24,000 nt of DNA from an uncultured Prevotellamassilia sp. (GTDB taxonomy: Bacteria; Bacteroidota; Bacteroidia; Bacteroidales; Bacteroidaceae): assembly GCA_964641085.1 (NCBI GenBank), contig CAZXJS010000011.1, forward strand, positions 39,588-63,587. Reading direction: 5' to 3'. Both the position numbers and the translations under genes were made by a program. Below the pieces are notes generated by a model, which was given only the letters and a program-made list of their open reading frames with translations, had not been told where the DNA came from and did no database searches. Below, piece after piece: positions 5,638 to 20,061 of the stretch; position 1 is the stretch's first letter; each line of letters begins with the position of its first letter.

Positions 5638-5700
5638 TCGGACTTAATTGCTGATGGCTCGGACTTATTTATTCCTACATCGGACTTAGTTTTTGTACAG
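5638..5700. repeat. Three 21-bp-spaced TCGGACTTA units (same family as arrays at 15203 and 19919)
   Basis: TCGGACTTA at 5638, 5659 and 5680 (spacing exactly 21 bp). The first unit TCGGACTTAATTGCTGA resembles TCGGACTTATCAGCTGA of the 15.2-kb array. Confidence 0.85.
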
Positions 5701-5810
5701 CCGTGGGATTACAATTGTTAACCCATGGCTTTACAATTGTAAACCCGTGGGATTACAATTGTAAACCCGTGGCTTTACAATTGTAAACCCGTGGCTGTAC
5801 AATAATTAGG
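5701..5810. repeat. 22-bp tandem array x5, each unit carrying the palindrome TTACAATTGTAA
   Basis: Units start at 5701, 5723, 5745, 5767 and 5789 (CCGTGG[GA/CT]TTACAATTGTAAAC). GGGAT and GGCTT variants alternate, giving a 44-bp higher-order repeat. Perfect 12-14-bp palindromes at 5730-5743, 5753-5764 and 5774-5787. The last unit is degenerate. Confidence 0.95.
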
Positions 5811-5836
5811 TCGGACGTATTCGGCAACACGTCCGA
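5811..5836. other. Hairpin closing the repeat block (inverted GTCGGACGT / ACGTCCGA)
   Basis: TCGGACGT (5811-5818) is the exact reverse complement of ACGTCCGA (5829-5836), with a 10-nt loop. Both arms are the core motif of the 21-bp family. Confidence 0.7.
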
Positions 5837-5925
5837 GGTAGCGGCGCTTTCCCCGTACTTTCGGGCGGGCACGCGACACGTTGAGGAAGGGACGCCGCCG
5901 GCGTCCGCACGTATCTGTGCGTCGC

Positions 5926-5973
5926 ACCGAGGGTGAACCGCCGCCGCTGCGCGTCGTCGGTTTACCCTCGGTT
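5926..5973. other. Long imperfect hairpin
   Basis: ACCGAGGGTGAACC (5926-5939) pairs with GGTTTACCCTCGGT (5959-5972), with one G-T position and a ~19-nt GC-rich loop. Confidence 0.6.
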
Positions 5974-5994
5974 AACGAGTCGCTTCGCTCCGTG

Positions 5995-6165
5995 TCGCCT
6001 TCGGCGACATTGGCGGCCGAAGGGCGGTCGGGTATATGTAATGGGAAAGTAAAGAAATCGCCTTCGGCGGCGTTGGTGGCCGAAGGGCGGTCGGGGATGT
6101 GTAATGGGGAGGTAAGGAAATTGCCTTCGGCGACATTGGCGGCCTAAGGGCGGTCGGTATGCGTT
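5995..6165. repeat. 63-bp tandem repeat x ~2.7; each unit is a GC hairpin plus an A/T-rich spacer
   Basis: Units start at 5995, 6058 and 6121. Each has CCTTCGGC...GCCGAAGG (8-bp stem, 10-nt loop). Read on the minus strand each hairpin is followed by TTTCTTTACTTT or ATTTCCTTACC. This looks like stacked intrinsic terminators just downstream of the permease stop (6183). Confidence 0.9.
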
Positions 6166-6182
6166 GTGGACACGTGTGGCGG

Positions 6183-18400: not shown

Positions 18401-19580
18401 TCCCGACGGCAGCATAGCGCTGCAAAGCGCCATCACACCGTCGGACGCGGCGCAGGACCTGCCCCGACTGGGCTATACCTTCGAGATGCCGCTGGGCTAT
18501 GACAACTATACCTACTACGGTCGCGGCCCCGAGAACAACTACAACGACCGCAAGACGAGCCAGTTCGTAGAAGAACACAGCGGCAAGGTAGCCGACAGCT
18601 ACACGTTGCTTCCCAAGCCGCAGTCGATGGGCAACCGGGAGGAGGTGCGCTGGCTCAGCCTGACGGACGCGGTCGGCGACGGTCTGCTCGTCCGCGCCGA
18701 CTCGACCTTCTCGTGCAGCGTGCTGCCCTGGAGCGCCTTGGAACTCATGGGGGCGGCTCACCCCTATCAGCTTCCTGCACCCGAAGCTATGCACATCCAC
18801 GTGGATGCCAAGGTGCGCGGACTGGGCGGTGCCAGCTGCGGCCCCGGCCCCTTGCAGGAAGACCTCGTTCGCGCGGGCGACGTAGGGAGCTTTGGCTTCC
18901 TGCTGCGCCCCGTCAGCGGCGGCAATGCTGCCAGCCAGGGACACGTTCGCGCCACCGGCCCGCGGCCTATTATTTTCAGCCGCAGCCGCGTCGGGACGCT
19001 GACGCTGCGCTCGGCCGACACCGCACGTACCATCCTCTACGCCCTGAACGGCGGTAAGTTCAAACCCTACGCCGCGCCCATCGCCCTGCGTGACGGCGGC
19101 ACCGTGACCGCCCGTTACAGCGACGCCCCGGGTCTCGTCTTCACCAACACCTACGCCCGCATTGACAGCCTGCCCCTGGAGGTAATCTACGTCAGCAGCC
19201 GCGAGCCCGGCGAAGGCGACGCCGAGCACCTCGTCGACGGCAACCCGCGCACCATTTGGCACTCGCAGTACGGCGTCACCTTGGGCAAATACCCCCATTG
19301 GGTGGACTTCGATGCCGGCGAGGAGAAACTCATCAAAGGCTTCGTCTATCTGGCGCGGCAAGACGGCGTCAACGGTCGCGTGAAGGACTACGAGATCCTC
19401 GTCAGCACGGACAACGTGACGTGGCAGAAGGCTTGCGGCGGCAGCCTTGCCGACACGGCAGAGGAGCAGCGCGTGCTCTTCCCGCAGCCCGTACGCGCCC
19501 GCTACGTGCGCTTCCGTGCCCTGAGCGAGCAGCGCGGCCAAGAGTACGCCTCCGGAGCCGAGTTCCGCCTGATAGAATAG
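15486..19580 (+). CDS. lacZ: Secreted GH2 beta-galactosidase (LacZ-type) with C-terminal accessory domains including F5/8 type C (discoidin)
   Basis: 1364 aa. Signal peptide [22 protein letters not shown]2 catalytic motifs [17 protein letters not shown] (acid/base Glu), [10 protein letters not shown] (nucleophile Glu). LacZ domain-5 motif [12 protein letters not shown] chitobiase/FN3-associated-like segment [20 protein letters not shown]. Terminal discoidin domain [13 protein letters not shown]...[13 protein letters not shown]. Confidence 0.92.
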
Positions 19581-19613
19581 TAGCGCCGCGCCGCAGTCGG
19601 CTACCGGCAAACC

Positions 19614-19650
19614 AAGGCTCTGCTTCCCGTTTGGGAGCGGAGCCTTTTTG
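19614..19650 (+). terminator. Intrinsic terminator of the beta-galactosidase gene
   Basis: GGCTCTGCTTCCC-GTTT-GGGAGCGGAGCC (19616-19644) followed by TTTTTG. Confidence 0.75.
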
Positions 19651-19918
19651 CTTGCCTGTCTCGGTGTTAAATACAGGCGGAAGTACGCGGCAAAACGGCA
19701 GCTCGGCACGATGCCGCGCCCTTGGCGGGATGGGGAGCGGACGCCTTTCTTCGTGCTTCCTCAAAGCGTTAGCAGAAAACGCCGCAGGGTAACAAACTGC
19801 GCTGAAATACGGCCTCTTTGCTGACACTTTGCTTCCGCGCATTTCAGCGTCTCCTTTTTAACTTCATTCTATGGAATTATGGAACAGCACGTTGGCTTTG
19901 TGCTTTGACAGCTCGGAT

Positions 19919-20010
19919 GTGCCGACTGACACGTCCGACCTATGAGCTGATAAGTCCGACCTATGAGCTGACACGTCCGACCTATGAGCTGATAAGTCCG
20001 ACGTGTCAGC
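19919..20010. repeat. 21-bp tandem array (about 4 units, CTATGAGCTGA[TA/CA][A/C]GTCCGAC), same family as 15203-15301
   Basis: GTCCGAC cores end at 19939, 19960, 19981 and 20002 (spacing 21 bp). The reverse complement of a unit (GTCGGACTTATCAGCTCATAG) matches the 15.2-kb unit at 19/21. Direct alignment gives 16-17/21 because the unit is near-palindromic. It is followed by CCTCCCGCCG (20016-20025). Confidence 0.95.
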
Positions 20011-20023
20011 CCGTGCCTCCCGC

Positions 20024-20061
20024 CGGCGGACGGGAAGAGCCGTCCGCCGTTATTCTTTAGG
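20024..20061 (+). terminator. Strong terminator-like hairpin immediately after the repeat array
   Basis: CGGCGGACGG (20024-20033) is the perfect reverse complement of CCGTCCGCCG (20040-20049), with loop GAAGAG, followed by TTATTCTTTAGG. Confidence 0.6.

Follow-up and report, generated by a model that had tools for sequence, protein, structure and literature searches.

A lineage-specific family of hairpin-forming 21-bp tandem repeats between genes of an uncultured Prevotellamassilia

Proteobacteria have well-characterised dispersed palindromic repeats, of which, to our knowledge, there are hardly any descriptions for gut Bacteroidales. Plasmid iterons are 17-22 bp long, and pSK41 parC consists of four 20-bp repeats. 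The REP, BIME and REPIN sequences of Enterobacteria and Pseudomonas (GTAG and CGTC superfamilies) have a short (about 20-40 nt) imperfect palindromic unit and are found mostly downstream of coding regions; in the described REP families the head-to-tail arrangement is rare, head-to-tail dimers being negligible (PMC3733652). The BrickBuilt elements of Porphyromonas gingivalis consist of a leader, a 23-nt minisatellite and a tail, are intergenic and break assemblies (PMC4596501).

The DNA analysed here, a stretch of 24,000 nucleotides from an uncultured Prevotellamassilia sp. (contig CAZXJS010000011.1; hereafter the window), contains a lineage-specific family of hairpin-forming 21-bp tandem repeats between genes, and the arrays are not explained by chance. 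At each locus, a few 21-bp units with the conserved core GTCGGAC(T/G)T(A/G)T follow one another head to tail. At least four loci are present in about 32 kb (the window and the adjoining sequence L004), and all four, namely the arrays A2 and A3, locus 1 and a copy in L004, lie downstream of a co-directional gene. Like the REPs, they have a short imperfect palindromic unit, are extragenic and mostly downstream of genes, occur as single or clustered units, form hairpins and vary between strains or lineages. With moderate confidence, we interpret them as a lineage-restricted, REP/BIME-like family of extragenic palindromic minisatellites, which by analogy would be equivalent in behaviour, within Bacteroidales, to REP/BIME clusters and to MITE-like elements bearing minisatellites. 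An earlier note on this DNA had proposed an unnamed, dispersed, hairpin-forming family of REP/BIME or MITE-like type. That description stands, except that the formal REP tag and the termini of a MITE are lacking (see below); gene mapping also bears out its statement that all copies are intergenic. The phased protein-binding landmark that it gave as an alternative has some support (see below).

Two arrays flanking a GH2 gene

The arrays A2 and A3 and their common flank are located as follows; lineage X is a sister lineage exhibiting ~88-90% nucleotide identity to the lineage of the window.

15198..15307, plus strand: array A2 (TRF, pattern counts, DNA fold, same site in both lineages)
19906..20025, minus strand: array A3 (TRF, inverted match to A2, fold, terminator scan)
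15298..15307, plus strand: flank motif CCTCCCGCCG, common to A2 and A3, absent after the orthologous array of lineage X
20016..20025, plus strand: flank motif CCTCCCGCCG, with strand and side as at A2

For A2, TRF reports a period of 21 with 4.2 copies at positions 15208-15295 (88% matches, no indels, consensus GTCGGACTTATCAGCTGACAG); for A3, it reports the same period with 3.7 copies at 19926-20002 (89% matches). The phased 21-bp tandem repeats noticed earlier at 15.2 and 19.9 kb are thus real. The 17-mer GTCGGACTTATCAGCTG, with up to three mismatches allowed, exhibits 14 matches, all within A2 and A3, against 0.12 expected from shuffled sequences. A2 is made up of an inverted unit (GATAA GTCCGAC TTGTCAG), four head-to-tail 21-bp units of the form GTCGGAC TTATCAGCTGACAG, a decayed unit (GTCGCAC) and then the flank CCTCCCGCCG. 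A3 comprises four to five 21-bp units, best read on the minus strand (GTCGGAC TTATCAGCTCATAG), with the same flank on the plus strand. The flank was found at 15298 and 20016, following both larger arrays as the earlier note had it. Three of the four window copies of the 8-mer CTCCCGCC also adjoin arrays.

The unit is close to its own reverse complement and, shifted by 10/11 bp, aligns with itself on both strands, so that an array has a dyad every 10.5 bp. The long perfect stem arises from the terminal unit in the opposite orientation: in A2, positions 15202-15225 pair perfectly with 15239-15262 in a 24-bp stem, in line with the previous proposal that the idealised unit is part of a longer palindrome. 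The DNA folding energies are -38.9 kcal/mol (z -8.3) for A2, -27 kcal/mol (z -4.9) for A3 and -53.2 kcal/mol (z -8.3) for locus 1 (5630-5860). According to these computed folds, single strands of the arrays, whether DNA or transcript, fold into very stable hairpins.

A2 starts 9 bp past the stop codon of a hexapeptide acetyltransferase gene (14635-15189), and the -7 box of the GH2 gene (TAAGTTTG, at 15387) is found about 80 bp downstream of its end. A3 is located 326 bp past the GH2 stop codon (19580) and 296 bp ahead of parA (20321), bracketed in the terminator scan by terminator-like hairpins at 19614-19646 and 20024-20049. We considered the arrays as canonical intrinsic terminators and rejected this: A2 has no T-run following it, and the GH2 gene has its own hairpin-plus-T terminator (19614-19646). 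The arrays were also rejected as parS or oriC, there being no canonical parS and no DnaA-box cluster in the window.

The inverted match between A2 and A3 (89 nt, 83%) is better than the direct one, and the inverted pair encloses the GH2 gene, an arrangement missed in the earlier note.

It is conceivable, though highly improbable, that A2 and A3 are recombination sites making the 4.6-kb GH2 segment an invertible or mobile cassette. The 89-nt arms, 83% complementary, do enclose a single gene, and a 7-bp GTCsGAC core with one asymmetric central base and 10-bp inverted arms would correspond to the core-site format of tyrosine recombinases. However, lineage X, which lacks A3, has the GH2 gene in the same place and orientation beside the acetyltransferase gene, and no recombinase gene is present in the window. 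The GH2 gene also has its own promoter and terminator, so that inversion would have no obvious effect. The GH2 gene as a mobile or invertible cassette was discarded on the synteny of lineage X.

A composite third locus and its second copy

The third locus of the window, locus 1, follows a FecCD gene. Its parts are listed below.

5638..5692, plus strand: left modules of locus 1, three TCGGACTTA cores at exact 21-bp spacing (pattern count, 0.00 expected)
5693..5803, no strand assigned: second array type, five 22-bp near-palindromic units (TRF, self-comparison, fold)
5810..5837, no strand assigned: right modules of locus 1, hairpin of GTCGGACGT and ACGTCCGAG, 21 bp apart (inverted-repeat search)
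5560..5938, no strand assigned: 379-bp stretch holding all of locus 1 (alignment to L087/L088, BLAST break points)

The core TCGGACTTA occurs at 5638, 5659 and 5680, in exact 21-bp steps, and the pattern TCGGACTTA-N12-TCGGACTTA exhibits three matches (two in locus 1, one in the 15.2-kb array) against 0.00 expected. All 27 of the 27 core bases in locus 1 are conserved beside 12-nt A+T-rich spacers that are unrelated to the spacers of the other arrays, and the profile of the clean arrays matches locus 1 with an E-value of only about 0.5. Locus 1 thus belongs to the family through its core and phase alone. Of the previous claim that the same module recurs at a third locus, the core and the 21-bp phase hold and the similarity of the spacers does not.

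Locus 1 is also a composite, which had escaped the earlier note: an array of five palindromic 22-bp units (TTGTAAACCCGTGGsWTTACAA, with dyads TTACAATTGTAA and CCCRYGGG) is embedded at 5693-5803. The inverted pair that the same note had described near 5811-5836 is real (5810-5836), and positions 5658-5837 form an imperfect palindrome with 89-nt arms (5658-5746 and a right part including 5810-5837).

The direct repeat CGCCG borders the 379-bp stretch on either side (5555-5559 and 5939-5943), and 22 bp separate the lower edge of the stretch from the -7 box of a GDSL-lipase operon (5531-5538, minus strand). The stretch with locus 1 is filled in the window and in L094/L095 and empty in L087, L088, L092 and L093, four contigs of the sister lineage; filled and empty orthologous sites, as sought for a MITE, are thus both found. 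In the comparison of orthologous intergenic regions proposed earlier, locus 1 is absent from the sister lineage and the 15.2-kb array is kept in both.

A second composite copy, with TCGGAC modules and the start of a 22-bp array, is located in L004 (10063-10155), about 6 kb past the window end and 47 bp past a stop codon. It has 43 nt in common with locus 1 (left arm, 83.7%; right arm as reverse complement, about 81%), and a 25-nt stretch of it is identical to the reverse complement of window positions 5794-5818. Altogether one more certain locus and one possible locus are found just outside the window.

These features bring in an alternative that we consider unlikely, namely that locus 1 and the second copy are BrickBuilt-type MITEs, each a minisatellite trapped between transposon ends, the transposase being elsewhere in the genome and A2 and A3 being remnants or solo expansions of subterminal modules. 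A 379-bp presence/absence polymorphism with a 5-bp flanking direct repeat, a palindromic body with 89-nt arms and at least two copies with a common junction are all consistent with such elements, and BrickBuilt has the same layout (leader, 23-nt minisatellite, tail), being intergenic and assembly-breaking as well (PMC4596501). In the sequence L013, 172-nt inverted repeats, 92% complementary, surround two 22-bp arrays. On the other hand, the indel does not end in inverted repeats, the alignment score of its ends (13) being no better than that of shuffled sequences (14.7 +/- 2.4). The two copies are alike over about 43 nt beside the 22-bp array, and the outer parts of the indel, roughly 100 bp, are not common to them. 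CGCCG, short and frequent as it is in DNA of 62% G+C, does not prove a target duplication, a deletion by microhomology being equally possible. There is also no transposase to match and no sequence similarity to BrickBuilt.

Differences between lineages and distribution of the arrays

Both lineages, which differ in about 10-12% of nucleotides, have retained A2 at the same site, and the remaining intergenic space around it is heavily diverged. A3 has no counterpart in lineage X, where the GH2 gene is followed by dnaK. It is situated immediately beyond a synteny break. The two lineages exhibit at least two such breaks in about 32 kb, and therefore the one beside A3 need not have been caused by the array. 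All units of the lineage X array are TTGTCAGCTGATAG, and those of the window are TTATCAGCTGACAG. In favour of the REP/BIME-like reading, the uniformity of units within each lineage suggests homogenisation within arrays, and the flank CCTCCCGCCG, common to A2 and A3 but missing from A2 of lineage X, suggests exchange between arrays; the palindromic and strongly folding unit, the position downstream of genes, the second copy in L004 and the presence or absence of locus 1 also support it. Under the REP/BIME-like reading, slippage would make arrays grow, shrink and homogenise, ectopic recombination would swap flanks between arrays, and sister lineages would gain or lose loci. The effect of an array would be structural, through hairpins at mRNA 3' ends or DNA cruciforms, and the arrays would also serve as substrates for rearrangement.

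The strict family pattern, GTCSGAC-NTNTNAGCTNANAN-GTCSGAC, matches the window five times. It exhibits no match in 185,579 species-representative genomes and a single one in the JGI metagenomes (L085), an unrelated contig, so that the family is restricted to its lineage rather than widespread. The L085 contig is A+T-rich, non-coding and probably eukaryotic; it was rejected as a relative of the family and treated as an unexplained look-alike. IMG/VR contains no match to the strict pattern or to the 22-bp dyad pattern, and its three matches to the core pattern are all due to chance, in coding sequence. No member was detected by the unit profile in 80 comparator genomes (1.3 Mb of loci), and BLAST searches of A2 and locus 1 against plasmid and phage records gave no match. 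The Rfam search, which the earlier note had recommended, yielded no named family at the gathering score (only sub-threshold miRNA-hairpin noise in E-value mode), and the exact unit strings retrieved only chance primer matches in the literature. A 21-bp unit corresponds to 7 codons, and translations of the arrays into peptides were therefore searched too, with spurious ORFs across other copies in view; none of 5.8 billion proteins matched at E<=0.001, a search of low power given the short and repetitive peptides.

The arrays recur in Logan contigs from five sequencing runs and are thus not an assembly artefact of one record. Those contigs break inside arrays, and each Logan contig of the source organism that reaches an array ends there. 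Related genomes exhibit arrays of the same design and unrelated sequence, also at gene 3' ends. In L006, they follow lpxB and also lie between alaS and recA, including a terminal unit in inverted orientation. The window holds three arrays (period 21-22) in 24 kb, compared with about 10 (period 20-24) in 1.25 Mb of comparator loci, a density that, together with the assembly breaks and the arrays of related genomes, also speaks for the REP/BIME-like reading.

It is possible, though not our favoured view, that the arrays are phased double-stranded binding sites for a dimeric sequence-specific protein (operator, iteron or centromere-like). Each GTCsGAC dyad, and in the clean arrays also a CAGCTG dyad, would face the same side of the helix, and a protein filament would form cooperatively ahead of the promoters of the GH2, parA and lipase genes. 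In favour of this, the arrays keep a period of exactly 21.0 bp without indels, and all three units of locus 1 have identical 9-bp cores beside unrelated 12-nt spacers, a contrast for which sequence-specific binding is a better explanation than structure alone. The retention of A2 at one site amid heavily diverged intergenic space points the same way, as do the ends of the window arrays, about 90-160 bp upstream of Bacteroidetes-type TAnnTTTG -7 boxes (15387, 20170, 5531-5538), and the position of A3 296 bp upstream of parAB in a window with no canonical parS. However, no candidate binding protein is encoded nearby, the neighbouring genes are functionally unrelated, and the sister lineage has neither locus 1 nor A3, yet its downstream operons are conserved. 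The L004 copy and the two L006 arrays occur at the 3' ends of genes, in one case with convergent genes on either side. Tandem duplication preserves a period automatically, and the recurrence of the design with unrelated sequences in relatives fits selfish turnover better than a conserved regulator.

Relation to named repeat systems

As in REPINs, an inverted pair of units makes a longer hairpin. Inverted dimers, head-head or tail-tail, are the main layout in REP and REPIN; here, a single inverted unit at the A2 edge gives the 24-bp perfect stem and the others are head-to-tail. Unlike REPs, the units mostly follow one another head-to-tail at a fixed 21-bp period and have no conserved unpaired GTAG or CGTC tag at the palindrome end: GTAG is absent from the units, and CGTC is present only in some (ACGTCCGAC in units of A3, locus 1 and L004), A2 having AGGTCGGAC without it. 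Pfam scans revealed no RAYT or other transposase in the window, which is filled with genes and has a largest gap of about 740 bp. The host phylum, Bacteroidota, differs as well. The missing tag, the rarity of head-to-tail layouts in REPs and the lack of a transposase gene in the window weigh against the REP/BIME-like reading.

With BrickBuilt (PMC4596501) the arrays share the host order, Bacteroidales, the intergenic and dispersed organisation around a tandem array of a 21-23-nt unit, the limited host range, the breaking of draft assemblies and a unit number that varies between strains. In contrast, the BrickBuilt consensus (AGAYCATARTATCCTCTCRTRTG) is non-palindromic, and its repeat and terminal repeats are unrelated to the sequences described here. 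BrickBuilt also has a defined leader and tail and IS-like 12-nt terminal inverted repeats, none of which were found here. In the Neisseria NIME arrays, the dRS3 repeats of which are CGTC-1 REPs, a short conserved palindromic repeat likewise alternates with variable blocks between genes, and the arrays are prone to recombination; however, the NIME blocks are 50-150 bp and variable in length, in contrast to the fixed 21-bp spacing and 3-5 units here. With 3-5 direct repeats of about 20-22 bp that are in helical phase and have a conserved core, the present loci also resemble iteron and centromere arrays, from which they differ in being chromosomal and dispersed at unrelated genes, in having no dedicated rep or par adaptor gene linked (only A3 is near parAB) and in being gained and lost between sister lineages.

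The 21-bp repeat family adds modestly to a known class and is not a new kind of system; at present it is a descriptive addition that opens no long-standing question. A catalogue of such lineage-specific arrays would help to close metagenome-assembled genomes and to flag recombination-prone sites, and the unit number and the presence or absence of arrays could act as strain markers.

A sequence-specific protein, for which a repeat-spreading enzyme or a nucleoid protein would be candidates, may also read the GTCGGACTTAT core, as suggested by a 9-11-bp core that is identical at exactly two helical turns as the spacers drift. Speculatively, and with a low probability in our judgement, GTCGGAC(T/G)T(A/G)T at two helical turns may be the recognition site of a lineage-specific protein that seeds arrays at gene ends and then lands on them in phase; candidates for this role would be a domesticated transposase or a protein that structures the chromosome. 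If this were true, the family would be a Bacteroidota counterpart of the REPIN-RAYT partnership, in which a head-to-tail array is replicated in place of an inverted doublet. Should there be a cognate protein, a tractable REPIN-like replicator may be available in a major gut phylum.

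Setting and structure of the repeat arrays

The window is a piece of a Bacteroidales chromosome (about 62% G+C); among species-representative genomes, the proteins nearest to its ParA (82% identical) come from Prevotella and Prevotellamassilia MAGs. Housekeeping genes on the minus strand encode two DHHW paralogues, MBOAT, GDSL lipase, FecCD, a periplasmic binding protein, lactonase, FMN reductase, HIT and GreA; those on the plus strand encode a hexapeptide acetyltransferase, a GH2 beta-galactosidase (1364 aa), ParA, ParB and DUF5683. Neither tRNA genes nor Rfam families at gathering score were found in the window. 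The adjacent DHHW/AlgX-like paralogues (704-2005 and 2010-3125) share 66-73% nucleotide identity across several hundred bases, and their operon with MBOAT and the GDSL lipase is likely a polysaccharide O-acylation cluster. Genes change direction, and the GC skew changes sign, at about 14.5 kb, in the interval from greA to the acetyltransferase gene (14416-14635); as no DnaA-box cluster was found, this is probably just a divergent promoter region.

Repeat features of the window
5638-5837, composite repeat locus (locus 1), within a 379-bp stretch (5560-5938)
5693-5803, near-palindromic array of five 22-bp units, TTGTAAACCCGTGGsWTTACAA, distinct from the 21-bp unit
5810-5837, two right-hand modules of locus 1, forming a hairpin
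15198-15307, plus strand, clean 21-bp array A2
19906-20025, minus strand, clean 21-bp array A3

The 21-bp unit, GTCsGAC followed by yTrTCAGCTGAyAr, is near-identical to its own reverse complement; tandem repetition thus places two dyads in every period, which explains why the consensus finds matches on either strand, offset by 10/11 bp. Tandem Repeats Finder returned period 21 with zero indels for A2 (15208-15295, 4.2 copies) and A3 (19926-20002, 3.7 copies), confirming the exact phasing that the earlier note had described at 15.2 and 19.9 kb. A 17-mer consensus gave 14 matches, inside A2 and A3, against 0.12 expected. The same note had counted 5638-5700 as a third family member, and this stands in part. 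The sole recurring part there is the core TCGGACTTA, at 5638, 5659 and 5680, spaced by exactly 21 bp (0.00 matches expected for the two-core pattern). A profile built from the clean arrays was not significant at locus 1 (E about 0.5), and only core and phase tie this locus to the family. A comparison of 22 unit positions drawn from every locus leaves G-T-C-G-G-A-C-(T/G)-T-(A/G)-T as the conserved part, the other 10 positions being locus-dependent. A core that recurs without any change, spaced by two helical turns exactly, beside unrelated spacers is the strongest point for reading the arrays as protein-binding sites, and for this reason we retain that somewhat unlikely reading as the main rival; candidate protein binding of the core would also be a component of the best explanation, a REP/BIME-like family.

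Locus 1 consists of three TCGGACTTA modules, the 22-bp array and the two further modules, which are the inverted hairpin pair previously reported to the right of the 5638-5700 units; 5658-5837 is an imperfect palindrome with arms of 89 nt. The dyad of the 22-bp array, TTACAATTGTAA, has the TACAnnTGTA form, as in BlaI/CopY-type operators (PMC7253601, which came up in the literature search by unit strings).

Folding, flanks and position relative to genes

The first unit of A2 is inverted relative to the remaining units, which produces a perfect 24-bp stem (15202-15225 pairing with 15239-15262). The hairpin-forming capacity claimed for the arrays is borne out by single-strand folds far stabler than shuffles at A2 (-38.9 kcal/mol, z -8.3), A3 (-27.0 kcal/mol, z -4.9) and locus 1 (-53.2 kcal/mol, z -8.3). 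A2 and A3 match slightly better in inverted (89 nt, 83%) than in direct orientation (up to 81%); a recombination cassette around GH2 is very improbable, and less probable than either the REP/BIME-like or the protein-binding reading. Despite the better inverted match, CCTCCCGCCG lies beyond both arrays on the plus strand, the common same-side flank already noticed. The 8-mer CTCCCGCC adjoins arrays in three of its four window occurrences.

All four loci, the three of the window and one on the Logan contig L004, are intergenic, as had been asserted for the repeats, and lie downstream of a co-directional gene: A2 begins 9 bp, the L004 copy 47 bp and A3 326 bp past it, and locus 1 follows FecCD. 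Downstream of each window locus, at a distance of 90-160 bp, is a TAnnTTTG -7 box. Ordinary intrinsic terminators are ruled out, since A2 is followed by no T-run and GH2 carries its own canonical terminator (19614-19646). This hairpin and a terminator-like one beyond A3 (20024-20049), both on the plus strand with T-runs, flank a non-coding stretch of about 400 nt holding A3. This stretch might be transcribed as an RNA of its own; upstream of it, no promoter box of the TAnnTTTG type turned up.

Further copies and comparison of two lineages

Logan contigs of SRR10277272 (98-99.5% identity to the window) represent the window's own lineage, W, and those of SRR32508937/42 and SRR25400523/28 (88-90%) a sister lineage, X. 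L004 (99.1% identity to 19963-24000) continues about 6 kb past the window and ends, 47 bp past a glyoxalase gene stop, with four modules of the GTCGGAC type that are spaced by 21-22 bp. These are followed by ACGTCCGACCTAATTATTGTACAGC, the reverse complement of 5794-5818, so that the start of the 22-bp array, placed between TCGGAC modules in locus 1, reappears. The composite thus exists in at least two copies. With at least four loci in about 32 kb, the dispersal proposed earlier holds. A fifth locus may lie at the end of the contig L095, which stops in ...CCGGACTTACCT at about 1.2 kb to the left of the window.

The comparison of orthologous sites that had been suggested gave one conserved and one variable locus. 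A2 is found in both lineages, starting at the identical base after the acetyltransferase stop codon, and the intergenic remainder is strongly diverged. Units share lineage-specific variants (TTGTCAGCTGATAG in X, TTATCAGCTGACAG in W), which indicates homogenisation within arrays. CCTCCCGCCG is common to A2 and A3 in W and absent after A2 in X, which points to sequence exchange between the two arrays in W. Locus 1 is present in W and absent in X, the 379-bp stretch being missing from four X contigs. It has CGCCG at either border and no inverted repeats at its ends; a classical MITE is doubtful, and less probable than the REP/BIME-like or protein-binding readings.

Beyond GH2 comes dnaK in X but parAB in the window (19581-20320 versus 4310-4632 of the X contig L086). 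Since homology ends 12 bp past the GH2 stop, A3 and its linkage to parA are W-specific. Synteny breaks a second time upstream of a sulfatase gene (L095 6603-6905 versus L087 8887-9209), where X has an XRE-type HTH gene and W 300 bp of non-coding DNA ending in CCGGACTTACCT. Rearrangement is frequent in this region; that it is linked to the arrays is no more than a suggestion.

A 63-bp tandem repeat (5995-6183, 2.6-3 copies), with G+C-rich hairpins in every unit, begins right after the FecCD stop codon. It is strain-variable, with one copy in X (L087) versus at least three in another Logan contig (L094).

Distribution and class of the element

The strict pattern (two GTCSGAC cores with fixed intervening sequence) had no match in 185,579 species-representative genomes or in IMG/VR, and one in JGI metagenomes (Ga0115007_10323734, 729-777), on an A+T-rich, non-coding, eukaryote-like contig. 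That array, 2.5 copies of GTCCGAC TTGTTAGCTAACAA followed by GTCGCAC (nhmmer E 2e-8), has the 21-bp design and the decayed last unit GTCGCAC in common with A2, a resemblance that is unexplained. Plasmid and phage records, Rfam and a literature search by exact unit strings yielded no match to the arrays, which agrees with the earlier failure to assign a name.

Arrays that share this design but differ in sequence are present in related Bacteroidales genomes. Prevotella sp. UMGS1105 has two (L006, 210-302 and 12330-12403) of 22-bp GCAAATACGCCGAATTTGC units, three direct and one inverted terminal, with a perfect 22-nt inverted repeat; they lie at gene 3' ends (one after lpxB, the other between convergent alaS and recA), mutually inverted and 12 kb apart around a parAB-relA-alaS block. 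In a Tannerellaceae MAG (L013, 7761-8300), 172-nt inverted repeats (92% complementary) enclose 196 nt with two different 22-bp arrays, about 1.1 kb upstream of parA. Arrays of period 20-24 number about 10 per 1.25 Mb in the comparator loci, versus 3 of period 21-22 in the 24-kb window.

With about even confidence, the family is read as REP/BIME-like. Its features combine as they do in REP/BIME-like elements (PMC3733652) and in BrickBuilt, a minisatellite-MITE found in Porphyromonas gingivalis (PMC4596501). What fits is that the unit is palindromic, that the loci sit at the 3' ends of genes, are dispersed and are gained and lost between sister lineages, that the arrays break assemblies, are homogenised internally and exchange flanks with one another, and that analogues are species-specific. 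Formal REP/MITE membership fails, because the family has no GTAG or CGTC tag as REPs do, has its units mostly head-to-tail rather than in inverted dimers, lacks the terminal inverted repeats of MITEs, and is accompanied by no transposase among the window genes. The repeat family is real, unnamed and lineage-restricted.
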